A stretch of 64,000 nucleotides of DNA from a bacterium (GTDB lineage: Bacteria > SAR324 > XYD2-FULL-50-16), in contig JAVVEA010000015.1 of NCBI GenBank assembly GCA_032250835.1, positions 1 to 64,000 of the forward strand. Direction: 5' to 3'. Positions 44,162 through 61,027 of this stretch are shown here, in pieces. Position 1 is the first letter of the stretch. The number at the start of each line of letters is the position of its first letter. The translations under genes were made by a program, and so were the position numbers. The notes beneath the pieces were generated by a model. It made no database searches. It was not told the DNA's origin and saw only the letters and a list, made by a program, of their open reading frames with translations.

Positions 44162-45577
44162 ATGTGCGGCGTATTTGGTTTTACTGGTCATCCCGAGGCG
44201 AAACAGATTCTTCCGGTCATTTTGGCCAGTCTGCAACACCGCGGGCACGACGCAACCGGGATTGCCGGTTTGGTCGCCGAAGGACCTAACTGTATCGACA
44301 CCATCAAGGAGATGGGCCGCGCCAGCCGTGCCATCACCACCGCTAAGCTCGATAAGTTCATTGGCGACAGCTTCATCGCCCATACCCGCTATTCGACCCG
44401 TAATTCTTCTTCTTCGCTGCGCGAGATCCATCCCCACTGGGCCCAGAGCATGCAGGGCCGTTTGGTGATCGTCACCAATGGTGATTTGCTCAACGTTGAC
44501 GAGCTGCTAGAATACATCGCCAAACGCAAGGTAAAGGTTTACACCAAAAACGACGCCGAGATCATCGCCGCCTTGATCAACATCCAAATCCGGCTGCGTG
44601 GGATGGACATGATGGAGTCCATCACCGAGGTGATGCGCCTGACCAAAGGCGGCTACGCCGGGGTGGTGATGACCGAAGACGACCCCAATATTTATGCCTT
44701 CAGGGACCCCTGGGGCATCCGTCCTTTGCATTACGCGGAGTTTAACTTGGGCGGGCAGCTTTGCCGTGCCGTCTCCAGCGAAACCTGTTCCTTTGACCTG
44801 ATCCAGCGATACGACGCCGTCAAATATCCTGACGGAGCCTACCAGACCCGTGAAGTGGCGCCTGGGGAGATCATATCCTTCTCTAAAGAAGGCACCCCGA
44901 CCAACCGCTTCCATTCTACCCGTTTCCCTGACCAGTTGGGCTGTGTCTTTGAAGCCATCTATTTCTCCCGGCCAGACAGTATCTTACGGGGGGTGACTTA
45001 CCAGACCCTGCGCGAGCGGATGGGCAAACAATTATTTCAGGAAGCTGGGGTCGAGGCAGACTTGGTGACCGCCGTGCCCAAAGGGGGCATCCCTTCGGCA
45101 GTAGGTTATGCCAAAGCAGCGGGCCTACCCTATTCAGTGGCGATTCTAGAAGAGCCTTCGACCGGGGGCTTGCGTAGCTTCACCACCAACCCCAAAGACC
45201 GCATGGCTTTAGCTAAGATGAAGTATAGCATCTTAAAAGATGTGGTCTTAGATAAACGCGTGGTGGTGGTTGATGATTCGATTGTGCGCGGCACCACCGC
45301 CAAGCTTTTGGTTAAAAGTCTTTATGAGGCCGGAGCCAAAGAGGTGCATTTGCGGATTCCCTGTCCGCCATACAACCATCCCTGCCACTACGGCATCGAA
45401 ACAAAGGACCCGAAGACCCTGCTCAGCCATGGGCGCAGTAACCAAGAAATCTGCGAGATTTTGGGGGCCCATTCGCTTTATTATCTCTCCATTGATGGAC
45501 TTTACGAGGCCTTAGACATGGAGCGCAGTAAGTTCTGCGACGAATGCCTTTCGGGCCGCCAGCCTTTCGATATTTAG
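44162..45577 (+). CDS. purF: Amidophosphoribosyltransferase (divergent)
   Basis: N-terminal MCG nucleophile, LQHRG, HTRYST, RDPWGIRPL, CVFEAIYFSRPDS, PRPP loop VDDSIVRGTT and Fe-S Cys (PCHYG, FCDEC). Confidence 0.85.
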   Translation: MCGVFGFTGHPEAKQILPVILASLQHRGHDATGIAGLVAEGPNCIDTIKEMGRASRAITTAKLDKFIGDSFIAHTRYSTRNSSSSLREIHPHWAQSMQGRLVIVTNGDLLNVDELLEYIAKRKVKVYTKNDAEIIAALINIQIRLRGMDMMESITEVMRLTKGGYAGVVMTEDDPNIYAFRDPWGIRPLHYAEFNLGGQLCRAVSSETCSFDLIQRYDAVKYPDGAYQTREVAPGEIISFSKEGTPTNRFHSTRFPDQLGCVFEAIYFSRPDSILRGVTYQTLRERMGKQLFQEAGVEADLVTAVPKGGIPSAVGYAKAAGLPYSVAILEEPSTGGLRSFTTNPKDRMALAKMKYSILKDVVLDKRVVVVDDSIVRGTTAKLLVKSLYEAGAKEVHLRIPCPPYNHPCHYGIETKDPKTLLSHGRSNQEICEILGAHSLYYLSIDGLYEALDMERSKFCDECLSGRQPFDI

Positions 45578-45754: not shown

Positions 45755-45793
45755 TTGTGAAGGTTTGCCAAAGAGTATTTTTTTAGTTAAGTT
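45755..45793 (+). promoter_or_regulatory. Putative nuo promoter with a Rex-like operator over the -35 box
   Basis: TTGTGAA-GGTT-TGCCAAA (45755-72) matches TTGTGAA-N4-TTCACAA at 11/14 positions; promoter TTGCCA-17 nt-TAAGTT. Confidence 0.35.
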
Positions 45794-45880: not shown

Positions 45881-46282
45881 ATGCTGTTTAACTTCGGCGT
45901 AGCCGCGACCTTCCTGGTCGTCATGGCCGCCTTCTTGGGTGTCAACCTCTTGGTTGCCCGATTGCTGAGCCCCCAAGCGCCCAGTGCCGAGAAGGCCGCA
46001 CCCTATGACTGTGGTGAAGCTCCGGTGGGTGTGGGTTACCGACAGTTTAACCTGCGCTTTTATCTAGTCGCTTTGATCTTCGTGATCTTCGATGTGGAGA
46101 TTGCCTTCATGTATCCGGTGACCGTGGTTTTTAAGGACCTGACCTTTGATGGATACGGCAGTCTGGCCTTTGTGGAGATCGGTATCTTCGTGTTGATTCT
46201 GACCGTTGGGTTTGTCTACGCCTGGAGCGTAGGTGCCCTTGACTGGGTCCGCGAACAGCTCCAAGAGGAGACTAAATCATGA
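45881..46282 (+). CDS. nuoA: Complex I subunit A
   Basis: [24 protein letters not shown]. Confidence 0.95.
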
Positions 46283-46770
46283 ACAACCTACTCAACACCT
46301 TCGATAACGACGGGATCGTCTTGACCACTTTGGATCAAGCACTCAACTGGACCCGTGCCAATAGCTTGTTTTACATGCTCTTTGGTTTGGCTTGTTGCGG
46401 TATCGAGATGATGCAGACCGGCGGCCCCCGCGGCGACCTGGACCGGTTCGGCTCGGTTCCAAGGGCTTCACCGCGCCAATCTGATTTGATGATTGTGGCC
46501 GGTACGGTGACCTTAAAGATGGCCAGCCGCGTTAAGGTGCTCTATGATCAAATGCCTGAACCGAAATATGTCATCTCCATGGGGAGTTGTTCGAATACTG
46601 GCGGCTTGTTCCAACCCGGCTACTCGGTGCTTCACGGTGTTGACCGGGTGATTCCGGTGGATGTTTACCTGCCCGGTTGCCCGCCGCGGCCCGAAGCTTT
46701 GACTTCTGCGCTGATCGAGATCCAAAAGCGGATCATGGCCGAGCGTTACCTTCGCAAGCAAAAGGACTAA
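46279..46770 (+). CDS. nuoB: Complex I subunit B
   Basis: [34 protein letters not shown] (N2 cluster ligands). Confidence 0.97.
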
Positions 46771-46779
46771 GGAGTGCCC

Positions 46780-47277
46780 ATGGAGACCCAAAACATCCTC
46801 CCGCTACTCCAAAGCAAGACCCAAGGGGCCTTGGAGTTGATCGAAGACGCCTATGGCGCTACGATCAAGGTCCCGGCCGAGGCCTTGTTGGAGGTTTGCC
46901 GCGCCGCTAAAGAATCGCCGGAACTAGCCTTTGACTGTTTGATGAGCCAAACGGGCAGCCACGTAGGCGAGTCGATCCAACTTTTTTATGTGCTCTTTTC
47001 CTACCAGCACAAACATGAGTTGATCTTGACCAGCGAGGTCCCCTTGGGCGGAAGTATCGACAGCGTTGCCGGCCTTTGGGCGATTGCCGATTGGCTTGAG
47101 CGCGAAACCTTTGACCTATTAGGGGTGAGCTTTAAGGGCCACCCGGACCTGCGCCGGATTATGTTGCCTGAAGACTGGGAAGGGCATCCGTTGCTGAAGG
47201 ACTACCCGACTCCGATGGAGTACAACGGGATTGACAATAGTCCTTCAGAAATCACTCAAAGCTTTAAAGTGAAATAA
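46780..47277 (+). CDS. nuoC: Complex I subunit C
   Basis: WLERETFDLLG..F.GHPDLRRIMLPEDWEGHPLLKDY; AAGGAG RBS. Confidence 0.95.
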   Translation: METQNILPLLQSKTQGALELIEDAYGATIKVPAEALLEVCRAAKESPELAFDCLMSQTGSHVGESIQLFYVLFSYQHKHELILTSEVPLGGSIDSVAGLWAIADWLERETFDLLGVSFKGHPDLRRIMLPEDWEGHPLLKDYPTPMEYNGIDNSPSEITQSFKVK

Positions 47278-47288
47278 GGAGCCACCAG

Positions 47289-48410
47289 ATGGGTAAGTCG
47301 CTCAAAACCGAGATCATGACCATCAACATGGGTCCCCAACACCCCTCGACCCATGGTGTGATTCGGTTTATTATCAAAACGGACGGTGAAATCATCCACG
47401 AGTGTATCCCCGATGTGGGCTACCTGCACCGCTCGATCGAGAAAATTGCCGAGGCGGTAAGCTGGCAAGGCTTTGTGCCTTATACGGACCGGGTGGACTA
47501 TCTGGCCGCTATGAACGCCAACTGGGCTTATTGTACGGCCGTCGAGAAGATGATTGGAGCCGAGGTTCCCCGCCGGGCCGAGTTTATCCGCGTGATTGTC
47601 GGCGAGCTCAACCGTATCTCTAGCCACCTGATTGCCATCGGTGCCACGGCCATGGACTTAGGGGCCTTCACTCCCTTTATCCAACTATTGCGAGAACGCG
47701 AGTACATCAACGACTTGCTGGAGATGGCCTGCGGTGCACGTCTGACCTATAACTACATCAGCATTGGTGGGGTCAACTGGGATGTACCGCCGAACTGGAC
47801 CGAGAAGATTGGCGAGTTCTTAGACCATTTTGAGTTGGCGATGGAGCAGATGAACCGGTTGATTTCTTATAACCGTATCTTCATCAACCGGATGGCCAAC
47901 TTGGCGACGGTCTCGGCCGAGACCGCCATTGACTATTGCTTCGTGGGGCCGAACCTACGTGCTTCGGGCGTCAAATACGATCTGCGTAAAGACATCCCCT
48001 ACAGTGTATACCCCGAGTTGGATTTTGAAATTCCCGTCGGCGAAGGCCGCGAAGGGGCCGTAGGCGATTGCTATGACCGCTACTATGTAAGGGCCATGGA
48101 AATCCGCGAATCGATCAAAATCTTACGCCAAGCGCTTAAGATGATGCCCGAAGGCGAATTTCAAGGCAAAGTAAAAAACAACATCAAACCCGAAGCTGGC
48201 GTGGCTTATGTCCGCCACGAAACGCCCCGAGGCGATACGGGATATTTGATTCAAGCAGATCAAAAAACTTCACCTTACCGATTGAAGATCCGTACCGGAA
48301 GCTTCACGGCCATGGCGGCGATACCCGAACTAGCCCAAGGCGTCTTCATTGCCGACTTGGTGGCCATTATCGGATCTTTGGACGTGGTCGCACCGGAACT
48401 GGACCGTTAA
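47289..48410 (+). CDS. nuoD: Complex I subunit D
   Basis: NMGPQHPSTHGV, GYLHRSIEK, DRVDY (quinone-site His/Tyr), ELNRISSHL; no NiFe CxxC motifs. Confidence 0.97.
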   Translation: MGKSLKTEIMTINMGPQHPSTHGVIRFIIKTDGEIIHECIPDVGYLHRSIEKIAEAVSWQGFVPYTDRVDYLAAMNANWAYCTAVEKMIGAEVPRRAEFIRVIVGELNRISSHLIAIGATAMDLGAFTPFIQLLREREYINDLLEMACGARLTYNYISIGGVNWDVPPNWTEKIGEFLDHFELAMEQMNRLISYNRIFINRMANLATVSAETAIDYCFVGPNLRASGVKYDLRKDIPYSVYPELDFEIPVGEGREGAVGDCYDRYYVRAMEIRESIKILRQALKMMPEGEFQGKVKNNIKPEAGVAYVRHETPRGDTGYLIQADQKTSPYRLKIRTGSFTAMAAIPELAQGVFIADLVAIIGSLDVVAPELDR

Positions 48411-48422
48411 CCGACGAGTAAA

Positions 48423-49676
48423 ATGCTGATCGAATCCATGACTTCCCTGGGCGTCCCCGAACTGGTGGCGCAATTGATCTACGCCGGATTGGTGGCCTTT
48501 ATGTGCATCAACTTCGTGGCGGTATACGCCGGTTTGATCTCGGTGGTGGAACGCCGTGTGGCCGCTAAGATGCAGTCACGGGTCGGACCTAACCGGGTAG
48601 GGCCCAATGGCTGGTTGCAGTGGCTGGCCGACGGCGTCAAATTGATCTTAAAGGAAGACCTGATCCCCGCAGGGGCTGACCGCTTGCTGTTTAAAGCGGC
48701 CCCGATGATTATGGCAGTGGGTGTGGCGGCGTCCTTTGCGGTGTTGCCTTGGGGACCGGCTCATGCAATCGCCGCGGACCTGAACGTGGGGATCTTATAC
48801 CTGATCTCCATTTCGGCATTGGTGGTCATTGGTATCTTGATGGCCGGTTGGGCTTCTAACAACAAATGGTCGCTTTTAGGCGGCATGCGTGCGGCGGCCC
48901 AGATCGTTACCTATGAAGTGCCGGTGGCCATGGGCTTGCTACCAGCGATCATGATTGCTGGCTCCTTGGCCGTTAGTGACTTGGTCAACGCTCAAGGTTG
49001 GGCTCCCTGGGACTGGGTAGCCTTCGATAACCCCTTCGCCATGTTGGGCTTTCTTTTGTTCCTTACGGGCAGCGTTGCTGAATCAAACCGGACGCCTTTC
49101 GACTTGACCGAAGCTGAATCAGAGTTGGTGGCCGGTTACTCGACTGAGTATTCAGGCTTCCGCTTTGCCATGTTCACGCTTGGTGAATTTGCCAACACTT
49201 GGGTGGTTGGGGCTATCTCTGCGGCTATCTTTCTTGGTGGCGGCTTGGTTCCCCCGATATTAGCCAATGTCCCCGGTGCTGCGGTAGGCGTGTTCATACT
49301 CAAGACCTTGTTTATGGTCTTTGTGTTGATGTGGTTCCGCTGGACTCTGCCGCGCTTCAGAATTGACCAGATGATGGACTTCTCCTGGAAGTACATGTTA
49401 CCCCTGGCGCTGTTGGCCTTCTTTGGCCAGTCGATCTACTTCTTGGCTACCTGGGACAGCCTAGTGGCTCAGTCGGTAGTCAGCCATCTGATGGTGCTGA
49501 TCTTTCTGGGCGTCTTCTTTGTCTTCATCAACCGCGTGTTGATCAACTACCGCCACCAAGCAACGGTGGTGAACAGCTATAAGACCGAAACGGACTATTT
49601 GGTGAAGACCGGCAAGATCGTTTTAGCGGCCCCGAAAGAGGCCGCCGCCGATTCATCAGAGCAGGAGGAAGGATAA
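48423..49676 (+). CDS. nuoH: Complex I subunit H (C-terminally extended)
   Basis: ERRVAAKMQSRVGPNRVG, ADGVKLILKED, AESNRTPFDLTEAESELVAG, RWTLPRFRIDQ. Confidence 0.97.
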   Translation: MLIESMTSLGVPELVAQLIYAGLVAFMCINFVAVYAGLISVVERRVAAKMQSRVGPNRVGPNGWLQWLADGVKLILKEDLIPAGADRLLFKAAPMIMAVGVAASFAVLPWGPAHAIAADLNVGILYLISISALVVIGILMAGWASNNKWSLLGGMRAAAQIVTYEVPVAMGLLPAIMIAGSLAVSDLVNAQGWAPWDWVAFDNPFAMLGFLLFLTGSVAESNRTPFDLTEAESELVAGYSTEYSGFRFAMFTLGEFANTWVVGAISAAIFLGGGLVPPILANVPGAAVGVFILKTLFMVFVLMWFRWTLPRFRIDQMMDFSWKYMLPLALLAFFGQSIYFLATWDSLVAQSVVSHLMVLIFLGVFFVFINRVLINYRHQATVVNSYKTETDYLVKTGKIVLAAPKEAAADSSEQEEG

Positions 49677-49680
49677 CCCC

Positions 49681-50319
49681 ATGAATATGACCCCCAAAGG
49701 CTCTCCGGTGAAGGTTTACTTCAATAACGTGCTCAACGGCATCAGCAGCATGTTTGAAGGGATGAGCATCACCTTAGCCAGCATGTTCACCCGCGCGCAA
49801 ACTGTGCAGTATCCCGAGGTGGACCCCCGCTCGGTGGCTTCACAACGCCAAAACTATAAAGGTAATTTCCGGGGCATGCCCGAGAATTACCGTGGATTGT
49901 TGGACGTTGAGATGGACATCTGCACCGCCTGCTTGATCTGCATGCGGGCCTGCCCGATCGACTGCATCGTGATCACCAACGTCAAATGCGACAAGCGGGT
50001 GTTCAACGGACGCAGCGGCAAAAAGGCGGTCCAGACCCGCGCGGCTACCCGCTTTGATATTGATCTGGGTAAGTGCATGTTCTGTGGACTTTGCACCCTG
50101 CCCTGCCCGACCGGTGCGATCTTCCATACCAATGAGTTCGCCTGGAACAAAGAAGACTTAGATAGTTTGGTCAAACGTTTCGTAGACCCAGAAACCGGGG
50201 CCGCTGCACAGAAGCGGGCCGAAGAAATTGCCCAGGAAGAAATAGCTGCTAAGGCTGCTAAAGCTGCTGCTAAAGAGGCAGAGCCTAGCAGTGGCGATAG
50301 CTCATCCGAGGAGTCTTAA
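49681..50319 (+). CDS. nuoI: Complex I subunit I (2x[4Fe-4S])
   Basis: TVQYPE, CTACLICMRACP and CMFCGLCTLPCP. Confidence 0.95.
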   Translation: MNMTPKGSPVKVYFNNVLNGISSMFEGMSITLASMFTRAQTVQYPEVDPRSVASQRQNYKGNFRGMPENYRGLLDVEMDICTACLICMRACPIDCIVITNVKCDKRVFNGRSGKKAVQTRAATRFDIDLGKCMFCGLCTLPCPTGAIFHTNEFAWNKEDLDSLVKRFVDPETGAAAQKRAEEIAQEEIAAKAAKAAAKEAEPSSGDSSSEES

Positions 50320-50323
50320 CCAG

Positions 50324-50821
50324 ATGGTACAGAATATATTTTTCTTGATTGTGTTGGTCTTCACCTTGGGCATGGGCCTTTACGTAACGGTGGGGCAAAA
50401 CTTGATCCGTTCAGCCTTCGCGCTTTTCTTTACGCTCTTTGGCATGGCCGGGTTTTATATTTTGCTTGGTGGTGACTTCATTGCCATGGTCCAATTGTTG
50501 GTTTACGCAGGCGGCATTGCCGTACTCTTGACCTTCGGGGCTATGTTGACCGCTGAGGTGGACAGCCCCTTCCAGTCAAACCAGTTATTTAATGGTTTTT
50601 GGACCTTTGTTAGTGGGGTGGGCTTCTTCTCGCTGATCTATTACGTCTTGATGGAGACTGACTGGCCCTTAAAGGCGGCAAACTACCATGAGCCGACCAC
50701 CAAAGAGATTGGCCGGTTGTTGCTCCAGCAATACATCTTACCCTTCGAGGTGATCTCCTTTTTGTTGCTAGTGGCCATGGTGGGCGCGATCTTCTTAGTT
50801 CAAAAGGGGGACCGACAATGA
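50324..50821 (+). CDS. nuoJ: Complex I subunit J
   Basis: QLLVYAGGIAVL and YILPFEVISFLLLVAMVGAI. Confidence 0.95.
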   Translation: MVQNIFFLIVLVFTLGMGLYVTVGQNLIRSAFALFFTLFGMAGFYILLGGDFIAMVQLLVYAGGIAVLLTFGAMLTAEVDSPFQSNQLFNGFWTFVSGVGFFSLIYYVLMETDWPLKAANYHEPTTKEIGRLLLQQYILPFEVISFLLLVAMVGAIFLVQKGDRQ

Positions 50822-51129
50822 GCTTAACCCTGATTTTGGCGGCCAGTACCGCCCTCTTTGCTTTGGGCACGGTGATGTTCATCTCCCGCAAAAACAGCAT
50901 CGCCATCTTGATGGGTGTTGAATTGCTGATGAACGCAGCGGCCTTGAATTTTATGGGCTTTTCTTATTACAGTCCGGCCAAGGATCATCCCTTGGACGGT
51001 CAGATATTCGCCCTCTTTATCATCTTGATTGCTGCGGCCGAAGCAGTGGTAGCCCTAGGCATCGCCATTGCGGTCTATAAAGAATACGCGCACGTTCAGG
51101 CCGACCAACTGAATCAGTTGGAAGGATAG
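50818..51129 (+). CDS. nuoK: Complex I subunit K
   Basis: MGVELLMNAAALNF and IAAAEAVVALGI. Confidence 0.95.
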   Translation: MSLTLILAASTALFALGTVMFISRKNSIAILMGVELLMNAAALNFMGFSYYSPAKDHPLDGQIFALFIILIAAAEAVVALGIAIAVYKEYAHVQADQLNQLEG

Positions 51130-51163
51130 CCGAAGTTTTGGAACCTAACGGAACGAAAAAACC

Positions 51164-53251
51164 ATGATCGAATCCCTGATCCCTTTAGTCCCCATCTTGC
51201 CGCTCTTCGGAGCCATGGTCATGGGGTTCTTCGGCAAGCGAATCCAGGCCGCCTTCGGTGAAAATCTGACCGGAATTTTAGGCTGTACTGCACCCGCATT
51301 GGCGGCGCTGATCGCTTTCGGCAGTTTCTTTGAGTTGATCAGCCTGCCAGAAGAGGCCCGAGTGTTTGTCATCAAACTGGGCCAATGGGTCGGCGTGGCC
51401 GACTTCCAGGTAGAGTGGGCCTTCCGCTACGATCCGCTTTCGGCCTTAATGTTGATGATCATCACCGGCATCGGCACGCTCATCCATATCTATTCGATGG
51501 GCTATATGCACGGCGACAAGAGCTTTTGGCGCTTCTTTAGCTACATCAACCTGTTCCTCGCGGCTATGTTGATGCTGGTCTTAGGCGACAACCTCTTGAT
51601 CATGTTCTTGGGCTGGGAAGGGGTAGGCCTCTGCTCTTACCTGCTGATCGGCTTTTGGTTCACCAATTCGGATTACGCCTACGCCGGACGCAAGGCCTTT
51701 ATTGTCAACCGGATCGGTGACTTAGGCTTTTTGACCGGTATGTTCTTGCTGATTTACTTTTCGGCCATGCATTACGACATCGTGACGTTAAGTTACGGAG
51801 AATTAGCCAACCGCATGGAGGTGCTCTCTAAGCTTCAGATTTGGGGCCTGCCCATGTTAGAGGTGACGGCACTGGCCTTCTTCGTTGGGGCCATGGGTAA
51901 ATCGGCTCAAATCCCCTTGTATGTCTGGCTACCCGACGCGATGGCCGGTCCGACCCCCGTTTCGGCTTTGATCCACGCGGCCACCATGGTGACCGCAGGC
52001 GTCTATATGATTGGCCGCATGTACTTTATGTACAGCATGGCCCCGATAGCGCTGCAAACCATTTCTTTTGTCGCCGCCGCTACCTGTTTCCTCTCGGCGA
52101 CCATCGGCATGGCCCAATATGACATCAAAAAGGTGTTGGCCTATTCGACGGTCTCTCAGCTCGGTTACATGTTCCTGGCCATGGGCGTCGGCGCTTATAG
52201 CGCAGGGATCTTCCACTTACTGACCCACGCCGCCTTTAAAGCTGCTTTGTTCATGGGCTCCGGGGCGATTATCGTCGCTTTGCACCACGAACAGGACATG
52301 CGCAAGATGGGTGGCTTGCTCAAGAAAATGCCCGTCACCGGTTATAGCTTCATTGCCGCGACGCTGGCGATCATGGGCTTCCCGTTGACTTCGGGTTTCT
52401 TCAGTAAAGACGAAATTCTTGAGAAGGCCTTCGAGCATGCCCCGGCCCTTTGGGTCTTGGCCTTTACCGCCGCAGGCATCACCAGCTTTTATATGTGGCG
52501 CTTGGTCTTCATGACATTCTTCGGGAAGTACCGGGGTGACGAGCATACCTGGGATCATTGCGTTGAGCAGCCCAAACGCACTACCGTACCGGTAGCTATC
52601 TTGGCGGTGGCGGCTTTGACCTTAGGCTTCTTGAACGTGCCCGACTTCTTGGGTGGAAGCTACAGCTTCAGTAACTACTTGTCGCCGGTGGTCAAAGATA
52701 TGGATGGCCACGCGCTCGAAGCTGGAGCGGTGCTTCATGCCGCTGCGGAACATGCCGCTGAGGCCGAAGAACACGGCGACCTTTGGATCGAATGGGCCTT
52801 GATGATTGGCTCGGTTCTTTGGACCTTCATTACCGCCGGATTGGCCTACTACTACTACATGAAGGCTCCCCAGCAGCGCGAACGACTGATGGCCAAGGCC
52901 GGTCCCAAACGAATTTTTCAGGTTTTACACGACAAATATTATGTCGACGAGTTCTACGACTGGGCTTTGATCCGGCCGTTGATCCGGTTGTTCCGTTTCT
53001 TAGCCAACTTCGACAAATACGTAGTCGATGGAGCGGTCAACCTAGCAGCCTTTTTAAGCAAAGGCTTGGCGCAGATAGCCGGCTTCCTCGACAAAGGCAT
53101 TGTTGACGGTATTGTCAACGAATTGGCTTGGTTTTCCCAAGCAACCGGCAAAGGCTTTAGCTTGATGCAAAGCGGGCGAATCCAAGGTTTGGTCGCCAGT
53201 ACGCTGGTACTTTTCACTGCGGTATTCGCATTGTTGATCTTTGTTCTTTAA
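51164..53251 (+). CDS. nuoL: Complex I subunit L
   Basis: GWEGVGLCSYLLIGFW, GKSAQIPLYVWLPDAMAGPTPVSALIHAATMV, HAAFKA and a lateral helix region. Confidence 0.97.
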   Translation: MIESLIPLVPILPLFGAMVMGFFGKRIQAAFGENLTGILGCTAPALAALIAFGSFFELISLPEEARVFVIKLGQWVGVADFQVEWAFRYDPLSALMLMIITGIGTLIHIYSMGYMHGDKSFWRFFSYINLFLAAMLMLVLGDNLLIMFLGWEGVGLCSYLLIGFWFTNSDYAYAGRKAFIVNRIGDLGFLTGMFLLIYFSAMHYDIVTLSYGELANRMEVLSKLQIWGLPMLEVTALAFFVGAMGKSAQIPLYVWLPDAMAGPTPVSALIHAATMVTAGVYMIGRMYFMYSMAPIALQTISFVAAATCFLSATIGMAQYDIKKVLAYSTVSQLGYMFLAMGVGAYSAGIFHLLTHAAFKAALFMGSGAIIVALHHEQDMRKMGGLLKKMPVTGYSFIAATLAIMGFPLTSGFFSKDEILEKAFEHAPALWVLAFTAAGITSFYMWRLVFMTFFGKYRGDEHTWDHCVEQPKRTTVPVAILAVAALTLGFLNVPDFLGGSYSFSNYLSPVVKDMDGHALEAGAVLHAAAEHAAEAEEHGDLWIEWALMIGSVLWTFITAGLAYYYYMKAPQQRERLMAKAGPKRIFQVLHDKYYVDEFYDWALIRPLIRLFRFLANFDKYVVDGAVNLAAFLSKGLAQIAGFLDKGIVDGIVNELAWFSQATGKGFSLMQSGRIQGLVASTLVLFTAVFALLIFVL

Positions 53252-53287
53252 CCAACCGACCGAAGGTCTTTACACTCTCTTGAGGTT

Positions 53288-54796
53288 ATGATGAGTCACA
53301 TTCTGTCATGGGTTGTTTTCCTCCCCTTGATCGGGATTCCACTTCTGTTCCTGCTACCCAAGGATAAAGGCAAGTGGATTGCCTTGGGGGTGACCATCGC
53401 CGATTTTCTGATCGGTATGCCCGTGATCATGGGCTACAACAAGACGATGGTCGGCGTCAGTAATCCTAGCGAGATGCAGTTCGTTGAACGGTTTTCCTGG
53501 ATTCCTAGCTTGGGCGTCGAGTATTCGATCGGCGTGGATGGTCTGTCCATTACCATGATCCTCTTGACCTTGTTGATCGGGATCTTGGGCGTCTTGGCTT
53601 CTTGGAACGTTAGCCAATTCGAGCGTGGATACTTCTCGATGTATCTACTCTTGCAGACCGCCATGTTAGGCGTCTTCGTGGCGCTGGATTTGGTGCTCTT
53701 CTTTATCTTCTGGGAAGTGATGCTCTTCCCTATGTATTTCTTGATCGGTGTCTGGGGCGGTCCGCGCCGGATTTACGCGGCCATCAAGTTCTTCTTGTAT
53801 ACCCTCTTCGGTGGTGTGGGTATGCTGTTGGCCTTTATCGCCATGTGGTACTACGCTCCGGGGGAACGGACCTGGGATATGGTTGAACTGCTCCAGCGGG
53901 TTGCCGCAGGCGGTCAGTTTGACGGACCTGACATCTTCGGGGTGGCCTTCACCAAGATGGTCTTCGTGGTGCTCTTCATTGGCTTTGCGATCAAAGTGCC
54001 GATCTTTCCCTTCCACACTTGGTTGCCTGACGCGCACGTCGAGGCCCCCACGGCAATCTCGGTGATCTTAGCCGGTGTGTTGCTGAAGATGGGGACTTAC
54101 GGTTTCTTACGGATCAACTTTACCTTGTTCCCCGAAGCCTTCGACTGGTTCCGTGACTTCTTGGTTGCCTTAGCGGTGATCAACATCGTCTACGGTGCGC
54201 TCTGCGCCCTGGCGCAGTCCGACTTAAAGAAGATGGTCGCCTACAGCTCAATCAGCCACATGGGCTTTATTTTGCTCGGTATTGCTGCCGCCACGCCCCA
54301 GGGCATCAACGGCGCTATGTTGCAAATGTTCAACCATGGTACCATCACCGCCATGCTCTTCTTGTTGGTCGGTGTGGTTTATGACCGTGCCCACCACCGC
54401 CAGATCGACGGGTTCGGCGGCTTAGCCGCTAGGACGCCGGTCTTTGCCGCCTTGACCAGCGCGGCCTTTATGGCTGCGGTTGGTTTACCTGGCTTCTCCG
54501 GCTTTATCAGTGAGTTGCTGATTCTTGCAGGTAGTTTTAAAGTTTACCAGGTGCCCACCATCATTGCCGGTTTGGGCATCATCTTCGGTGCTGGATACAT
54601 GCTCTGGGCATACCAGCGCGTGTTCTTCGGCAAGTTGAACGAGAAATATGCCGATATGCCCGACGTAAATCGGGTGGAGGTGATTTCCCTGTTGCCCCTG
54701 TTGGTGATCGTGGTCTATCTCGGGATTTTCCCCAACAACCTGATCGTCTTCTTCGAGGCTTCGATGAACCACATCAGCGAACTGTTGCTGCACTAA
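53288..54796 (+). CDS. nuoM: Complex I subunit M
   Basis: FIFWEVML.PMYFLIGVWGG, KVPIFPFHTWLPDAHVEAPT, YSSISHMG. Confidence 0.97.
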   Translation: MMSHILSWVVFLPLIGIPLLFLLPKDKGKWIALGVTIADFLIGMPVIMGYNKTMVGVSNPSEMQFVERFSWIPSLGVEYSIGVDGLSITMILLTLLIGILGVLASWNVSQFERGYFSMYLLLQTAMLGVFVALDLVLFFIFWEVMLFPMYFLIGVWGGPRRIYAAIKFFLYTLFGGVGMLLAFIAMWYYAPGERTWDMVELLQRVAAGGQFDGPDIFGVAFTKMVFVVLFIGFAIKVPIFPFHTWLPDAHVEAPTAISVILAGVLLKMGTYGFLRINFTLFPEAFDWFRDFLVALAVINIVYGALCALAQSDLKKMVAYSSISHMGFILLGIAAATPQGINGAMLQMFNHGTITAMLFLLVGVVYDRAHHRQIDGFGGLAARTPVFAALTSAAFMAAVGLPGFSGFISELLILAGSFKVYQVPTIIAGLGIIFGAGYMLWAYQRVFFGKLNEKYADMPDVNRVEVISLLPLLVIVVYLGIFPNNLIVFFEASMNHISELLLH

Positions 54797-54829
54797 GAAG
54801 GCTCAAAGAATTGAAGCAAAGGTTATAGG

Positions 54830-56257
54830 ATGTTCAATACGCTACCCTTTCTCGCATTTTTGCCGGCCCATATTCTGCTCGCTTTGGCTATGCTCTTCTT
54901 CTTTGCGGGGAAGGCGGTGCCGGGCTTGAGGAAAATGCCGGTAACCCCGCTTTTTCTGTTGGTCTTGGCCGGGGCCTTCGCCTTTGAGGCGATGGGTGAA
55001 GGGTCCCACGAGATCTTCTTTGGGATGATTGTGGTCGATAGCTTCTCTAGGCTCTACGACCAGATATATTACCTCGTCACGGCCATTGTTGTCTTGATGT
55101 TGCACTATTCAGACGAAGTGGACCGCGACAATGACTGGGAAAACTTCGGTCTTTTGTCTTGCTTGTTGCTGGGCATGATGTTCATGACCAACTCTAGCCA
55201 CCTCTTGATGGCCGTGATCGGCATCGAAATGGTTTCTTTGCCTAGCTATTTGCTGGTGGCGATGAATCGCAAGGTGGCTGCGGCTAAGGAAGCGAGCTTG
55301 AAGTATGTGCTCTTCGGCAGTTTCGCCACGGGCATCATGCTCTACGGTATGTCTTTGCTCTTTGGTCTGACCGGGTCTTTGGCCTTCGCCGATATTTGGA
55401 GTGGTTTGGACGGCTCTGTGGTGGGCTCACCGGTCTACTATTTGGCGATTGGTATGACCTTAGCGGGTATGGCCTTTAAAGTCGCTGCCGTGCCCTTCCA
55501 CTTCTGGTGCCCTGATGCTTACCAAGCGGCTCCGACCCCGGTGACTGCGTTTTTGAGCGTGGCCCCAAAGGTCGCTGGTTTGGCTTTGATGATGCGCTTT
55601 TTTGCCGAGCATATGGCGGTACAGGGCGAGAGCTTGACGCTGATGTTGTCGATCATCTCCATGGCAACCATGACCCTGGGCAACTTTGCCGCTCTAAAAC
55701 AGACCGACATCAAACGGCTGTTGGCTTATTCGTCTATCTCTCACGCCGGGTTCTTGTTAATGGGGGTCACGGTGCTGAACGCTGACGGGCGTCAGGCGGT
55801 GTTCTTTTATATCCCCATCTATCTTTTGATGAACTTAGGTGCCTTTATGGTGGTGATTTTGCTCTCAAAGGAGCAGAATTTTCAAATCAGTTCCTTTAAA
55901 GGTGCCATTAAAGCCAACCCATTATTGGTCGTGGCTTTTGCGGTTTGCAGCTTCAGTTTAGCGGGTATTCCGCCCTTCGCTGGATTTGTGGGTAAGTTTT
56001 ATCTCTTTAAAGCCAGCTTAGAAAAAGGTTTATACCTGCTCTTGCTGGTGGCGGGGATCAACTCGGTGGTGGCACTCTTTTATTATGTGAACGTCCTTAA
56101 GGTGATGATCATTGATAAAGAAGCCCAGCCGATGGTCCCACTGACCCAACGAATCCCTCTGGTTTTTGTGACCAGTTGCGCTGTGCCGCTCGTCTTTTTA
56201 GGCATCTATTGGGTGCCTTTATTACACTGGGCCGAAAAAGTTCGACTATTCCAGTAA
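54830..56257 (+). CDS. nuoN: Complex I subunit N
   Basis: EASLKY, FKVAAVPFHFWCPDAYQAAPTP, KRLLAYSSISHAG, SLAGIPPFAGF.GK. Confidence 0.97.
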   Translation: MFNTLPFLAFLPAHILLALAMLFFFAGKAVPGLRKMPVTPLFLLVLAGAFAFEAMGEGSHEIFFGMIVVDSFSRLYDQIYYLVTAIVVLMLHYSDEVDRDNDWENFGLLSCLLLGMMFMTNSSHLLMAVIGIEMVSLPSYLLVAMNRKVAAAKEASLKYVLFGSFATGIMLYGMSLLFGLTGSLAFADIWSGLDGSVVGSPVYYLAIGMTLAGMAFKVAAVPFHFWCPDAYQAAPTPVTAFLSVAPKVAGLALMMRFFAEHMAVQGESLTLMLSIISMATMTLGNFAALKQTDIKRLLAYSSISHAGFLLMGVTVLNADGRQAVFFYIPIYLLMNLGAFMVVILLSKEQNFQISSFKGAIKANPLLVVAFAVCSFSLAGIPPFAGFVGKFYLFKASLEKGLYLLLLVAGINSVVALFYYVNVLKVMIIDKEAQPMVPLTQRIPLVFVTSCAVPLVFLGIYWVPLLHWAEKVRLFQ

Positions 56258-56297
56258 ATAAGCCAACCAAAAGGGTCGGTTCGGATAATAATTGGGT

Positions 56298-56326
56298 TTG
56301 ACGGAGCGGGGTCGGACCCATACAAT
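56298..56326 (+). promoter_or_regulatory. Near-consensus sigma70 promoter upstream of PFOR
   Basis: TTGACG-17 nt-TACAAT. Confidence 0.7.
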
Positions 56327-56403
56327 CACAGACGGCGCAATGGTATCCATCAAAGGCCGATGGACCCTCCCGCGAACGCATTGAATTATCTTTCAGGTAC
56401 TCC

Positions 56404-59400
56404 ATGAGCAAGCCCAAATATCCCGGTATCCGAACCACCACGAACGGCAACACTCTGGTTGCCTACTACACCGAAGCGCGCATTGCCGAGGCGGGGATTT
56501 TTTACCCCATCACACCCTCGACTGAAATGGGCGAAAACTTTCAGCTTTCCTTTGCCCAAGGGGAATTGAACGTCTTTGGTCAGGTCAAAATTGCCTTGGA
56601 AACCGAAGGTGAGCACGCGGCCCAGTCGGGCGCGATTGCCGCTTCGACGACTGGCAAACGGGTGGTCAACTTTACCTCCGGTCAAGGTGTGGTCTATGGC
56701 GCTGAGCCTTACTACCATGCCCCTAGTAAATTTAGCACCATGGTGCTCCAGATCGCGGCGCGCGCACTGACCAAGTCAGCGTTGAACGTCCACTGTGGAC
56801 ACGACGACGTCTATTCGGTCTTAGATACCGGCTGGACCATGTTGTTCGCTAAAGATGCCCAGCAGGCCTCGGATCAATCGATGATCCTGCGCCGGGTCAA
56901 TGAGCTGAGCCTCAACCCCGGCATCAACTGCCAAGACGGCTTCTTGACCAGCCACTTGGAGCGTACCTTCTTGATCCCCGAAGCCGAACTGATCCGCGAG
57001 TATCTGGGCCGTCCTGAGGACATGATCGACTGCCCCAATGAGTCGCAGCGTCAGTTATTCGGACCCAAGCGCCGCCGTGTTCCCATTGGCATGGACCTGA
57101 AGAGCCCCGTTTTGATGGGCCCCGTCCAAAACCAGGAACACTACATGGGGGGCGTGATCGCTCGGCGCAACCACTTCGTTGAGCCGATCTTAGGCTTTTT
57201 AGAGCAAGCCTACGAAGAATTTGGCAAACTGACGGGCCGCAACTATGGTTTGATCAGCCAGTACAACTGCGAAAAGGCGGATACCGTCTTCGTATCGCTA
57301 GGCTCCTCGGCTGAAAACATGGAAGCCGCCAGCGACTACCTTAAAGGTAAAGGCCAGGAATCCTTTGGGGTGATCCACCTCAACGTGATCCGCCCCTTCC
57401 CCGAGGCCGCAGTGGTCAACGCCCTGCGCGGTAAGAAGAATGTGGTTATCTTAGAGCGCATGGACGACCAGACCGCTTCAGATAACCCGATGGCCCGCGA
57501 CATCCGCACCGCTTTATCTAAGGCTCTGACCAATTCAAAGACCAAGGCCTTTGACTACCTGCCTTCGATCACCGATGCCGAAATGCCCCGCCTCTTCAGC
57601 GGCGTCTATGGTTTAGGCAGCCGCGACTTCCGCCCCGAAGGCGTGTTGGGTGCCTTTGACTTTGTGACCGGCAAGTCGGCCCGCCAGGATGGCAAGAAAG
57701 CCTCTGATGGCGTCAGCTTCTTCTACGTTGGGGTGGATCACCCCTACTCGGTTGAATCCCAAGACAAGCCTAGCCTCCTGCCGGACGGCTCTATCGCCAT
57801 CCGCTTCCACTCCATTGGTGGTTGGGGTGCGATCACGACCGGTAAAAACTTGGGCGAAATCATCGGTAGTATCTCTAACTACGTAGCCGAACGCGATGGG
57901 TTGTTTGAAGAGAATGGCTCCCCTAAAGAGGTCTTCCATATCTCGGCGAACCCTAAGTATGGCTCAGAAAAAAAGGGTGCCCCGACCAACTATTTCTTGG
58001 TCGCCGCTCCTGAGCGGATTCGGGTTAACTGTGATTTGCGCCACGTAGACGTGGTTCTTTGCTGCGACCCCAAGGCCTTCACCCACACCAACCCGCTCAA
58101 CGGGCTCAACCCCGGCGGCGCGTTGATTATCGAGACCGACGAAACCACTTCAGCAGGGCTCTGGGGCCGCATCCCCAAGCAGTACCGCCAGTGGATCATC
58201 GACAACCAAATCCGCATCTACGGCTTGGCCGGTTTTGCGGTGGCTCGCAACGCCACGGAGCGTGAAGACCTCCAGTACCGTATGCAGGGCAACAGCTTCT
58301 TGGGGGCCTTCTTTAAGGTCTCTCCGATGCTCAAGGATTACAACATCCCCGAAGATGGTTTCTTGGAAATCGTCGAGGCCCAGTACAACAAAAAGTTTGG
58401 ACGCTTCGGCGACGCCGTGGTGTCTTCAAACATGACCGTAATGACCGAAGGCTTTAAGGGCGTTTGGCAAGCCGAATACGGCCAAGTGGACGATGTCGAT
58501 GGCTCGGCCATGCGCGGTCCCCGCTTGCTTCCGGTTAGCGGTAAGGCTCGTTTCGACGAACATGACGAAAAAGGCAAGCAAACCGCTAAGGTTCCTTACC
58601 ACTCAGTTGAAGCCTACAATGCTGAGTTTAAGGCGGGCTACGGTTACGACCAGCCCTCTACGGTGTTGGCTTCGACCGGTGTGATGGCTGCGGCTTCTGC
58701 GGCGACTAACTCAAAGTATGTAAGCCGCCGCCGGGTGCCGATCTTTTACCCGGAAAACTGTACCCAGTGTATGGCCTGCATCACCTCCTGTCCCGATACG
58801 GCTATGCCGAACGCGGCCCAGGACATCAGCACTGTCTTGAAGGCGGCTATCTCTAATTACGTTAGCGATGCCGCTGCCGTTAAGGTTCTGCTAGACGCAG
58901 TCCCCAGCTTGGATCAGAGCCTACGCGAAGCGATGATGTCGCAGATTCAAGAGAACAAAAACGAGGCCAAGAGCTTTACCGTTCTGGTTTCAGAAGCCCT
59001 TAAGACGGTAGACGTCTCTGAAGCGGCTAAGCAAGAGTTGTTGGGCATCATCGAAAAGGTCCCCATGGCTTACGCCAAGAGCCGACCGATCTTCGAGTTG
59101 CCCGAAAAGAAAGAAAAAGGCGCAGGCGGCCTCTTCACCATCATGATCAGTGACCTCTGCAAGGGTTGCGGTGAGTGTGTGGTGGAATGTGGCGACCACA
59201 AAGCCCTTTCAATGATCGAAGAAACCGAAGAGATCAACGGTGAGCACGCCACGGGTATTGCCTTCTTAGACCTGCTGCCGGACACTTCTTCTAAGTTCTT
59301 GGGTAAGTTTGACGCGGCCAACATGGTGGAAACCTCTAAAGGGGTGCTGCACAACCACTTGATGATCCGCACCAACTATGACGCACTGGTTTCTGGTGAC

Positions 59401-60978
59401 GGTGCCTGTGCTGGTTGTGGTGAAAAAACCGTCCTTCGGGCTACGGCGACGATCACCGAAGCCTTCATGCGGCCTTTGTACCACGAGAAGGCCAACCGCC
59501 TTGAAGGCAAAGCTAAGAGCTTGGTTTCCGGTGGGGTTAAGATGCTGGCGGACCTCAAAGCCAAAGACGAAGAGGCCTACAAATGGTGGCGTGCAAGCTT
59601 GCTGCACCTAGTTATGGGCTTCGGCGGCGAGAACGAAAAAGACAGCTTGGTCCAGATGGAAGGCTTTGGTGGCGATGACGCCGAATTGATCAACGCCTTG
59701 GATCTGGTCTTGCGCCAAGACGCCTTCAACCACCGCGATTTGCGCGCTGTGGACGGTCGTTATGCCAACGGTATGAGTGTGATGATGATGACCAGTTCGA
59801 CTGGTTGTAACTCGGTTTATGGCTCAACCCACCCGAACAACCCGCACCAGTACCCCTGGATGAACAGCCTGTTCCAAGACAGCCCCACGCTGGCTTGGGC
59901 CTTTGGCGAAACCATGATCATGGACCACTCGAAACGCTCCGTATTACCTGAGCGGATCGCCGATGCCTTGATCGAAGGTAAGGGCTTGACCCAGACCCAG
60001 TACTTCCGTTTCACCCACTTTACCGATGCTGAGATGACCGATCAGGAAATCTTGGAACTGCCCAAGGTTTGGGCCATCGGTGGCGACGGCGCTATGGGGG
60101 ATATTGGTTTCCAGAACCTCTCTAAAGTGGTGCTGCAAAACCGGCCCAACGTGAAGTGTCTGATGCTCGATACCCAAGTCTACTCGAACACCGGCGGTCA
60201 GAACTCTGACTCTTCGGTAATGCCCGGTGGTTTCGACATGAACCAGTACGGTAAGGCTACCGAAGGCAAGATGATCGAGCGTAAGGAAGTGACCAGTATC
60301 CTGATGGCGGGCCATGGTAGCCCCTTTGTGGCACAGGTAAGTATGGCCAACTCGGCCAATCTCCTCAAGGCCGTCTTGGACGCGGTAACCTACCGTGGCA
60401 CGGCTTATATCCAAAGCTTCACCACCTGCCAGCCGGAGCATGGCGTGGCCGACGATGTGTCGACCGTACAAGCTCAGTTGGTGCGTGACTCACGGGCTAT
60501 GCCGGAACTGGTCTTTAATCCTTCAGAAGGGGAAACCTACTACGAGGCACTTTCTCTTAAGGGCAACCCGAACGCTAAAAACGACTGGTTGATCAAAAAA
60601 GACCCCGAAGGCAATCCTTACAACTACACCGTAGCCCACTGGGCGACCACCGAAGCCCGCTTCAGAAAGCACTTCTTTAAGGTCGAAAAGGGTGGCGAGG
60701 CGCAGTTGGAGCATTTGGATTCAGCCTTAGCACGCCTCAGCCAGGACGACGTGGTTTACCGCCGGTTCCTAATTCCCGGCCACCGTGCCTTTGTGCCGGA
60801 AAAGGGGGTGTATATTTTGGTTGAAAAGAAGGGCAAGATGGTCCCCATGGGCATCAGCCGTCAATTGGTCTTATTCTGCGTCGAGCGGCGTAAGAACTGG
60901 CGGATGTTGCAGTCTATGGCAGGCGTCCCCAACGAAGATTACAAAGCCCAACGCGAGCATTTAGCTTCGTTGAAGTAA
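56404..60978 (+). CDS. nifJ: Single-chain pyruvate:ferredoxin/flavodoxin oxidoreductase (NifJ-like, long form)
   Basis: YPITPS, FTSGQG, IAAR, YGLGSRDF, CTQCMACITSCP, CKGCGECVVEC, ACAGCGE, STGC, TPP motif GGDG...DTQVYSNTGGQ. Confidence 0.9.
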   Translation: MSKPKYPGIRTTTNGNTLVAYYTEARIAEAGIFYPITPSTEMGENFQLSFAQGELNVFGQVKIALETEGEHAAQSGAIAASTTGKRVVNFTSGQGVVYGAEPYYHAPSKFSTMVLQIAARALTKSALNVHCGHDDVYSVLDTGWTMLFAKDAQQASDQSMILRRVNELSLNPGINCQDGFLTSHLERTFLIPEAELIREYLGRPEDMIDCPNESQRQLFGPKRRRVPIGMDLKSPVLMGPVQNQEHYMGGVIARRNHFVEPILGFLEQAYEEFGKLTGRNYGLISQYNCEKADTVFVSLGSSAENMEAASDYLKGKGQESFGVIHLNVIRPFPEAAVVNALRGKKNVVILERMDDQTASDNPMARDIRTALSKALTNSKTKAFDYLPSITDAEMPRLFSGVYGLGSRDFRPEGVLGAFDFVTGKSARQDGKKASDGVSFFYVGVDHPYSVESQDKPSLLPDGSIAIRFHSIGGWGAITTGKNLGEIIGSISNYVAERDGLFEENGSPKEVFHISANPKYGSEKKGAPTNYFLVAAPERIRVNCDLRHVDVVLCCDPKAFTHTNPLNGLNPGGALIIETDETTSAGLWGRIPKQYRQWIIDNQIRIYGLAGFAVARNATEREDLQYRMQGNSFLGAFFKVSPMLKDYNIPEDGFLEIVEAQYNKKFGRFGDAVVSSNMTVMTEGFKGVWQAEYGQVDDVDGSAMRGPRLLPVSGKARFDEHDEKGKQTAKVPYHSVEAYNAEFKAGYGYDQPSTVLASTGVMAAASAATNSKYVSRRRVPIFYPENCTQCMACITSCPDTAMPNAAQDISTVLKAAISNYVSDAAAVKVLLDAVPSLDQSLREAMMSQIQENKNEAKSFTVLVSEALKTVDVSEAAKQELLGIIEKVPMAYAKSRPIFELPEKKEKGAGGLFTIMISDLCKGCGECVVECGDHKALSMIEETEEINGEHATGIAFLDLLPDTSSKFLGKFDAANMVETSKGVLHNHLMIRTNYDALVSGDGACAGCGEKTVLRATATITEAFMRPLYHEKANRLEGKAKSLVSGGVKMLADLKAKDEEAYKWWRASLLHLVMGFGGENEKDSLVQMEGFGGDDAELINALDLVLRQDAFNHRDLRAVDGRYANGMSVMMMTSSTGCNSVYGSTHPNNPHQYPWMNSLFQDSPTLAWAFGETMIMDHSKRSVLPERIADALIEGKGLTQTQYFRFTHFTDAEMTDQEILELPKVWAIGGDGAMGDIGFQNLSKVVLQNRPNVKCLMLDTQVYSNTGGQNSDSSVMPGGFDMNQYGKATEGKMIERKEVTSILMAGHGSPFVAQVSMANSANLLKAVLDAVTYRGTAYIQSFTTCQPEHGVADDVSTVQAQLVRDSRAMPELVFNPSEGETYYEALSLKGNPNAKNDWLIKKDPEGNPYNYTVAHWATTEARFRKHFFKVEKGGEAQLEHLDSALARLSQDDVVYRRFLIPGHRAFVPEKGVYILVEKKGKMVPMGISRQLVLFCVERRKNWRMLQSMAGVPNEDYKAQREHLASLK

Positions 60979-60994: not shown

Positions 60995-61027
60995 AAAAAA
61001 GGGTCGCTTCGGCGGCCCTTTTTTTTT
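60995..61027 (+). terminator. Intrinsic terminator after PFOR
   Basis: GGGTCGC-TTCG-GCGGCCC followed by 9 T and preceded by A6. Confidence 0.9.

Follow-up and report, generated by a model that had tools for sequence, protein, structure and literature searches.

A complex I gene block without nuoEFG followed by the gene of a long 2-oxoacid:ferredoxin oxidoreductase in a SAR324 bacterium: a recurrent linkage and a possible coupling by ferredoxin

The locus described here lies in a window of 64,000 nucleotides (the whole stretch of DNA that was analysed) from a bacterium of the SAR324 lineage (XYD2-FULL-50-16; assembly GCA_032250835.1, contig JAVVEA010000015.1). The window is contig 6 of a draft genome of 3.66 Mb, 97% complete. 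It contains eleven contiguous nuo genes followed by the gene of a long-form single-chain 2-oxoacid:ferredoxin oxidoreductase (OFOR), related to pyruvate:ferredoxin oxidoreductase (PFOR). Judging from their products, the eleven nuo genes would encode a complete complex I devoid of N-module (NuoEFG), i.e., the Q-module plus the proton-pumping membrane arm. The comparison of this locus with the rest of the genome and with relatives leads to the conclusions that: (i) the nuo-OFOR link looks selected rather than accidental; (ii) the two enzymes are probably coupled by a soluble ferredoxin, the oxidative direction (from OFOR to ferredoxin, headless complex I and quinone) being preferred tentatively as a reading which falls just short of being probable.

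The nuo-OFOR locus

The eleven nuo genes are all on the + strand and are flanked by purF and an AIG2-like gene (ORF listing, Pfam, NCBIfam). The features are the following:

44162..45577, + strand: purF, amidophosphoribosyltransferase (Pfam GATase_6/7 and Pribosyltran)
45881..46282, + strand: nuoA (PF00507, 112.6 bits)
46279..46770, + strand: nuoB, cluster N2 (PF01058; NF011393, 267.5 bits, above cut-off)
46774..47277, + strand: nuoC (PF00329, 125.2 bits)
47289..48410, + strand: nuoD, short form of 373 aa (PF00346; NF004739, 433.8 bits, above cut-off)
48423..49676, + strand: nuoH (PF00146, 361.8 bits, residues 26-333 of 417)
49681..50319, + strand: nuoI (Fer4 families; NCBIfam NuoI models)
50291..50821, + strand: nuoJ (PF00499)
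50818..51129, + strand: nuoK (PF00420)
51164..53251, + strand: nuoL (PF00361 and PF00662; NF005141, 670 bits, above cut-off)
53288..54796, + strand: nuoM (PF00361)
54830..56257, + strand: nuoN (PF00361)
56263..56279, no strand assigned: small hairpin directly 3' of the nuoN stop, with a weak T tail on the + strand; returned on the - strand by the pattern scan
56298..56326, + strand: sigma-70-like promoter for the OFOR gene (TTGACG-17-TACAAT, 10/12 matches)
56404..60978, + strand: long-form single-chain OFOR, 1524 aa (Pfam, NCBIfam, alignments)
61001..61027, + strand: intrinsic terminator (7-bp GC-rich stem, TTCG loop, nine T)

Only 12 nt separate nuoD and nuoH (48410 to 48423), thus nuoEFG cannot fit in the operon. 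The OFOR gene is the next gene on the + strand, 146 nt past nuoN. An earlier reading of the window, made from the sequence only, had described the eleven-gene operon, these two distances and the terminator. The operon and the distances are borne out by the ORF listing and Pfam, the terminator by direct reading of the sequence; it must be noticed that the pattern scan does not return it. The ORF of nuoA opens at TTG 45803; its first internal ATG, at 45881, is the likely start. purF is a conserved upstream neighbour of the block and has no functional part in it. An 80-aa ORF at 45544-45786, considered as a small carrier, was rejected, since it matches no family and runs into the 3' part of purF.

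A complex I without N-module

NuoB contains only four Cys, at positions 39 and 40 (in tandem), 104 and 134, and NuoI contains two CxxCxxCxxxCP motifs. His22 and Tyr71 of NuoD correspond to the quinone-site residues His38 and Tyr87 in Nqo4 of T. thermophilus, and they are also found on alignment to NdhH; the retention of this His and Tyr had been proposed from the sequence alone. The complex has intact ligands for N2, N6a and N6b, and both residues of the quinone site are retained.

Some subunits have peculiarities. NuoH has a C-terminal extension of ~80 aa. The C-terminal tail of NuoI (residues ~170-212) is rich in Lys, Ala and Glu and of low complexity. This tail, and an extra Cys103 in an insertion between the cluster motifs, are conserved in the aligned orthologues of the family and order (16 rows), whereas the Fibrobacteria copy of NuoI has neither the tail nor this Cys. 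NuoD lacks ~25-40 residues, between query residues 293 and 295, which are present in Nqo4, NdhH and the mitochondrial 49-kDa subunits, and its full length can be aligned only with subunits of the MBH/MBS type and with a single NuoD entry.

No second nuo operon was found in the genome by tblastn with all eleven Nuo proteins, the only other matches being two Mrp-like antiporter genes on contig 40. Complex1_51K matches are three in number: two RnfC, from two rnf operons, and one NuoF-like gene on contig 13, which is adjoined by the single NuoE-like gene of the genome. This cluster (L005:5676-11019, - strand) encodes a NuoE-like protein of 177 aa, a NuoF-like protein of 592 aa, in which a 2x[4Fe-4S] domain is additional, and a 1013-aa protein in which a NuoG-like N-terminus is fused to a GltD-like NADPH module, without molybdopterin-like body; a rubrerythrin gene adjoins it. 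The cluster looks like a module of the electron-bifurcating transhydrogenase type rather than the head of a complex I; it resembles Stn/Nfn transhydrogenase or hydrogenase modules. In the whole genome no NuoG was found above cut-off and no flavodoxin (PF00258) was found. The search for nuoEFG or a second nuo operon, which the sequence-only reading had called for, thus returned no plausible N-module besides the contig-13 genes, the absence being not absolute since the genome is 97% complete. A headless complex cannot bind NADH and therefore must exchange electrons with a low-potential carrier.

The long OFOR

The domain order of the OFOR in Pfam is POR_N, PFOR_II, POR, Fer4 and TPP_enzyme_C, i.e., domains I, II, III, V and VI. 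The three [4Fe-4S] Cys motifs and the GDG motif for thiamine pyrophosphate (TPP) are invariant in the 13 members aligned. The best solved relative is the Moorella PFOR (6cin, E = 5.5e-66); in the alignment with it, Thr (in YPITPS) and Arg (in AAR) are conserved, and these two residues presumably bind pyruvate, as in solved PFORs. The enzyme is predicted from its motifs to be catalytically complete, with pyruvate as its probable substrate.

Canonical PFOR (NifJ; D. africanus 1b0p, Moorella 6cin) has the same domain order, three [4Fe-4S] clusters, TPP motif and Thr/Arg pair. On the other hand, the long OFOR shares only 26% identity with the canonical PFORs found in its bacterial family, its clade has ~350 extra residues, and its score on the NifJ-type PFOR equivalog TIGR02176 is 346.8 bits, below the cut-off of 911.35. 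The gene had been read as a complete single-chain PFOR: the single chain and the PFOR domain order stand, the assignment to canonical PFOR does not. The extra residues form three main additions plus smaller insertions: (i) ~72 aa inside the ferredoxin domain (806-886); (ii) ~105 aa after the CxxC of the proximal cluster (1016-1128); (iii) a C-terminal extension from 1429 onward.

The closest named homologues belong to metagenome-assembled genomes of 'Candidatus Lambdaproteobacteria' (79% and 74% identity). Each of the best 120 homologues has a length of 1491-1683 aa and an identity of 60% or more. The clade is large, with 5989 proteins at E <= 1e-3 among 8000 scored, and in contigs taken from one genome per species at least 593 of the 600 matched stretches encode a relative of the OFOR. 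Relatives are found in Acidobacteriota, Verrucomicrobiota, Planctomycetota, Bacteroidia, Gemmatimonadota and others. Databases name them only as '2-oxoacid:acceptor oxidoreductase family protein' or PFOR, and none of the papers listed in literature searches deals with the clade, judging from title or abstract.

Among 18 relatives of the family, 10 were found to have the long OFOR and 4 canonical PFOR; a single genome has both, and in 5 neither was found. It must be noticed that two of these last five genomes are only 68% complete and that in large genomes only part of the first-look candidates was scored. This largely complementary distribution supports pyruvate as the substrate.

Gene order in relatives

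All the 19 genomes of the family, source included, were examined; the gene after nuoN is readable in 16 of them. The order purF-nuoA..N-OFOR is kept in six other genomes of the family and in one genome of another family of the order, in spite of Nuo identities of only 34-79% in the latter, and purF precedes nuoA in the seven relatives (7/7) with a nuo-OFOR block. In the OFOR tree, the copies of the order form one clade (support 99), the copy of the other family is basal, and the copies linked to purF only are nested. In the NuoN tree, the seven operons adjacent to OFOR and seven operons with another downstream gene are sister clades (support 95 each). It follows from these topologies that the purF-nuo-OFOR block is ancestral in the order and that nuo moved out once.

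The basal genera g2 and g9 are without long OFOR and possess a canonical NifJ-type PFOR (>1680 bits). In G001, this canonical PFOR (1688 bits) starts 126 nt past nuoN, on the same strand. In G008, it is located 7.4 kb downstream of nuoN, again on the same strand. The contig of G011 stops 430 nt past nuoN, and the downstream gene is unreadable. In both G008 and G011, purF is not upstream of nuoA. The same slot is thus filled by a non-orthologous enzyme of the same presumed activity, which is hard to explain by inertia. Three ORFs occupy the nuoN-PFOR interval of G008 (contig 28, L129/L142), with products of 1383 aa (TPR-CHAT-staphylococcal-nuclease), of the Bro-N type and of 142 aa; nuoN and PFOR seem to have been contiguous at first and then parted by the insertion of a defence or mobile element.

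An independent case is provided by Fibrobacteria. At locus L023, nuoB-C-D-H-I-J-K-L-M-N precedes a long OFOR which belongs to another clade. At L023:39-1232, matches to NuoB and NuoC are observed in one 397-aa frame, which may be a NuoB-C fusion or reflect a misassigned start. A long OFOR is present in 2 of the 31 Fibrobacteria genomes searched; the second copy, on a 3.2-kb contig, shows no nuoN in its 1 kb upstream, and the pairing is therefore counted once. The best 80 OFOR loci of other phyla were surveyed, 64 of them with at least 1.5 kb of upstream sequence; nuo adjoins the long OFOR in one of these 64. A link of rnf and OFOR in Opitutaceae (locus L020) was dismissed as chance: the genes are 2.8 kb apart and the link is absent from the closest relative, L015.

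A paralogue inside an rnf operon

The genome encodes a second long OFOR, of 1491 aa and 37% identical to the nuo-linked one. Its clade is also widespread (4197 proteins at E <= 1e-100 among 7999 scored). On contig 17 (L006:5168-17422), the order is rnfB-OFOR-rnfC-D-G-E-A, followed by a korAB-type two-subunit OFOR, the gaps around the embedded gene being 12 and 7 nt. Genes of pyruvate phosphate dikinase (PPDK) and of a protein similar to phosphoenolpyruvate carboxykinase (PEPCK) are upstream; the downstream side encodes a 542-aa protein whose C-terminal domain is Fer4_13. The order rnfB-OFOR-rnfC is also found in G006 and G010 and, in another family of the class, in G026, G033 and G031, so that rnfB-OFOR-rnfCDGEA is observed in six genomes of two families in total. 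Both ferredoxin-type ion pumps of the organism therefore have a PFOR-like gene attached.

Compared with known Rnf operons, rnfB, C, D, G, E and A are present at this locus with their usual families; the difference resides in the 1491-aa OFOR between rnfB and rnfC and in korAB after rnfA. No description of the rnfB-OFOR-rnfC layout was found in a literature search. Many members of this second clade (Bryobacteraceae, Hydrogenedentes, Myxococcota and others) are ~1647 aa long with an extra Fer4_13 ferredoxin domain, which may be a built-in acceptor.

Metabolic context and other features

There is no canonical PFOR in the genome. E1_dh, i.e., the pyruvate dehydrogenase (PDH) type, is matched only once, over 68 positions of a 664-aa frame and with 26 bits. 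No type of pyruvate/acetyl-CoA oxidoreductase other than the long-form OFOR was found. The genome contains a single haem-copper oxidase and lacks cytochrome bd; it also lacks RuBisCO and has four [NiFe]-hydrogenase loci. A pair of genes similar to ATP-citrate lyase (ACL) or citryl-CoA synthetase (CCS) has Citrate_bind scores of 54-57 bits, above cut-off, while none of 14 control genomes gives a match; the match of the ACL-like large subunit is weak. The pair, on contig 42 (L140:5006-9079), consists of a 438-aa protein with ATP-grasp_2, Citrate_synth_N and Citrate_bind and of an adjoining 908-aa protein, whose first 300 residues are similar to succinyl-CoA ligase alpha and whose other 600 are without match. 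An H+-pyrophosphatase gene adjoins the pair, in which an ATP-citrate lyase or citryl-CoA synthetase of uncommon type may be encoded.

Elsewhere in the window, 23111-24076 (- strand) encodes a protein with the Ig-like and C-terminal domains of MtxA (a magnetotaxis protein) plus DUF7354. In a relative, locus L142:5670-8570 gives a weak match to the MamA model (84 bits, the cut-off being 200).

Comparison with known systems

The best solved match of NuoD is NdhH of the cyanobacterial/chloroplast NDH-1 (6hum_H, E = 5.6e-92). NDH-1 is likewise without NuoEFG, and ferredoxin is its donor. It possesses the additional ferredoxin-docking subunits NdhS, NdhV and NdhO; no gene of the NdhS, NdhO or NdhV type was found in the present operon with Pfam, the only part of the genome searched for them. 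The complex does not match the subunit models of F420H2 dehydrogenase (Fpo): the scores on FpoD, FpoH and FpoL are 317, 252 and 405 bits for cut-offs of 600, 475 and 1050, respectively.

There is ample documentation of complex I operons that are partial and of donors that are alternative (PMC4453560). In the complex I of C. jejuni, flavodoxin and two genes substituting for nuoE/F are involved (Weerakoon and Olson 2008, cited in PMC4453560); the present locus is not of this type, given the 12-nt nuoD-nuoH gap and the lack of PF00258 match. The function of NuoABCDHIJKLMN in Prevotella is called open (PMC10542786), an earlier survey is reported to have found no common partner for the 11-subunit complex I (PMC11238625), and for cyanobacteria, where PFOR-reduced ferredoxin is under discussion, PFOR has been connected with ferredoxins in aerobic conditions (PMC8887894).

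The closest case is D. hafniense (PMC11238625), with nuoABCDHIJKLMN, no nuoEFG, and PFOR plus ferredoxin proposed as input on the basis of inhibitor and proteome evidence. According to the same text, D. hafniense cannot do without the enzyme when it grows on pyruvate or lactate, and rotenone blocks growth on these two substrates and not on H2. The PFOR and ferredoxin genes of D. hafniense are distant from nuo and its PFOR is an ordinary one, whereas here the OFOR gene is a direct neighbour and belongs to the long clade. The transfer from PFOR to ferredoxin to 11-subunit complex I is thus already published as a hypothesis (PMC11238625). The new elements are: (i) the recurrent nuoN-PFOR linkage, including the non-orthologous replacement; (ii) the OFOR embedded in rnf; (iii) the unstudied long clade of the enzyme.

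Mode and direction of the coupling

If the coupling occurs through a soluble ferredoxin and in the oxidative direction, the OFOR would convert pyruvate and CoA to acetyl-CoA and CO2 with reduction of ferredoxin. The latter would be re-oxidised at NuoI, and the electrons would pass via N6a/N6b and N2 to quinone, protons being pumped, while quinol would be used by the single haem-copper oxidase. The nuo genes and the OFOR gene would be separate transcription units, kept adjacent because of one shared ferredoxin pool. The rnf-embedded OFOR, with its korAB, PPDK and PEPCK-like neighbours, would be the partner of an NADH-linked, probably biosynthetic, ferredoxin circuit. A division of labour may be conceived, the nuo-linked OFOR being catabolic and the rnf/korAB-linked OFOR biosynthetic. 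The gene content, the cofactor ligands, the absence of N-module and the recurrent linkage are observations; that the carrier is ferredoxin, the substrate pyruvate and the direction oxidative is inferred.

Several results weigh against this coupling or against its closer forms, i.e., a single operon or a physical complex. The OFOR gene has its own promoter-like site. TTGACG-17-TACAAT is the best of 9 promoter-like sites in the region, shuffled sequences giving a mean of 10.2, and the arrangement TTGAC-N17-TAnAAT between nuoN and OFOR is kept in three genera (with the genomes G003 and G010) in the intergenic alignment; this signal was already noted in the sequence-only reading. Two relatives, G006 and G013, have a terminator-like hairpin, followed by a run of T, between nuoN and OFOR. 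Because of this conserved site and of these hairpins, nuo and OFOR are probably separate transcription units. In 7 of the 16 readable genomes of the family (genera g5 and g10), the gene after nuoN is not of the PFOR type; where these genera were scanned, nuoN is followed by NAPRTase and isochorismatase. The synteny looked for in relatives is upheld as an ancestral trait of the order, by the canonical PFOR of G001 and by one Fibrobacteria case, and fails in those seven genomes. In G015, G018 and G009 (the last via locus L007), the long OFOR is directly after purF and nuo is on another contig. The purF-OFOR linkage is thus as persistent as the nuo-OFOR one, and the conservation may be partly plain collinearity. 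In 77 of the best 80 loci of other phyla, there is no nuo, rnf or purF near the long OFOR, and no recurring neighbour, ferredoxin or flavodoxin was found with Pfam in 150 flanking ORFs of these loci. A strict motif scan of the genome yields a single small dicluster ferredoxin candidate, of 97 aa and on contig 38, and no ferredoxin gene is linked to the locus. In agreement with the earlier reading, a six-frame translation of the whole window contains no separate dicluster ferredoxin, CxxCxxCxxxC being present only in NuoI and OFOR. Finally, the ACL/CCS-like pair, korAB, PPDK, the PEPCK-like gene and the four [NiFe]-hydrogenases, together with the lack of RuBisCO, fit a reductive tricarboxylic acid (TCA) cycle, so that this cycle, and hence reverse operation, is possible. 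The direction from pyruvate to quinone, which had been proposed from the sequence, is consequently not established.

The last point is the basis of the main alternative, in which the same ferredoxin coupling operates mainly in reverse: the proton-motive force would drive electrons from quinol to ferredoxin, and the OFOR would act as a pyruvate synthase in an autotrophic or anaplerotic role. Reverse operation of a complex I without NuoEFG has reportedly been proposed for autotrophs with a reductive TCA cycle such as Nitrospira. The gene set listed above argues for this alternative, including the ACL/CCS-like pair and the korAB, PPDK and PEPCK-like genes that accompany the rnf-embedded OFOR. It is nevertheless unlikely, if by no means negligible: (i) the two Rnf complexes could already make reduced ferredoxin from NADH; (ii) as no PDH-type enzyme was found, an OFOR must also serve pyruvate oxidation in heterotrophic growth; (iii) the weak match of the ACL-like large subunit leaves the reductive TCA cycle not established; (iv) the physiological data available on the 11-subunit enzyme point forward (PMC11238625). 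The adjacency could also be without functional meaning, i.e., a purF-nuo-OFOR order inherited in one order of bacteria, plus chance. In favour of this are the equal conservation of purF, which has no respiratory role, the clade which parted nuo from OFOR and lost neither, the long OFOR standing alone in 77 of 80 loci elsewhere, and the probably separate transcription units. Inheritance can hardly account for the non-orthologous canonical PFOR at 126 nt (G001) and 7.4 kb (G008) after nuoN, for nuoA without purF upstream in G008 and G011, for the independent Fibrobacteria case, or for the paralogue embedded in rnf operons. The chance that one new junction hits one of one to three PFOR-type genes among ~3000 is ~1 in 1000 (a rough estimate, not a computed value). 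A meaningless adjacency is thus improbable.

Ferredoxin coupling must also be compared with direct contact. The long OFOR could replace NuoEFG by docking on NuoI/B/C/D, and the resulting pyruvate:quinone oxidoreductase complex would need no soluble carrier; the ~350 extra residues of the long clade, the conserved charged tail of NuoI and the window devoid of ferredoxin gene are consistent with it. The insertions, however, belong to a clade which stands alone in most phyla, and a canonical PFOR without them takes the same genomic slot; nuo and OFOR are unlinked in g5 and g10, where the OFOR stays with purF; the promoter-like site and the hairpins of two relatives separate the genes; and the tail of NuoI is also found where nuo adjoins no PFOR. 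A complex prediction with NuoI (alignment of 16) and OFOR 760-965 (alignment of 13) gave 0.01 and 0.00 for a mark of 0.32, which is evidence neither way. Docking is very improbable. Of the earlier proposal that PFOR feeds the complex by a ferredoxin or docks on it, the recurrent adjacency, the absence of N-module and the rnf paralogue support the first part, and the second is unsupported. Only slightly more credit is given to the general idea that PFOR-type enzymes are dedicated docking modules, the OFOR on NuoI forming a pyruvate:quinone pump and its paralogue, as a subunit of an Rnf variant, a pyruvate:NAD+ pump, with no free ferredoxin. The least probable explanation, scarcely credible, is that the contig-13 NuoE/F-like proteins attach to the complex, which would be an ordinary NADH dehydrogenase with a split operon. 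Split nuoEFG operons do exist elsewhere, e.g., in Desulfurobacterium (PMC12724263), and the NuoF-like protein reaches 479.6 bits on TIGR01959; but this is below the cut-off of 558.65, NuoG is lacking above cut-off, and the 1013-aa neighbour is a NuoG-like/GltD-like fusion without molybdopterin-like body.

Significance

A PFOR-type gene is found repeatedly right after nuoN, with two non-orthologous enzymes and in two phyla. This recurrence, the paralogue wired to rnf and the fact that long OFOR and canonical PFOR largely substitute for one another in the family point to PFOR-reduced ferredoxin as the physiological partner of the complex. The result bears on the question of what feeds the widespread 11-subunit complex I, and it names concrete proteins to reconstitute. 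It also draws attention to two large uncharacterised clades of OFORs of 1500-1680 aa, common in Acidobacteriota, Verrucomicrobiota, Planctomycetota and others. Should the coupling be real, pyruvate oxidation in these bacteria would give proton-motive force while bypassing NADH.

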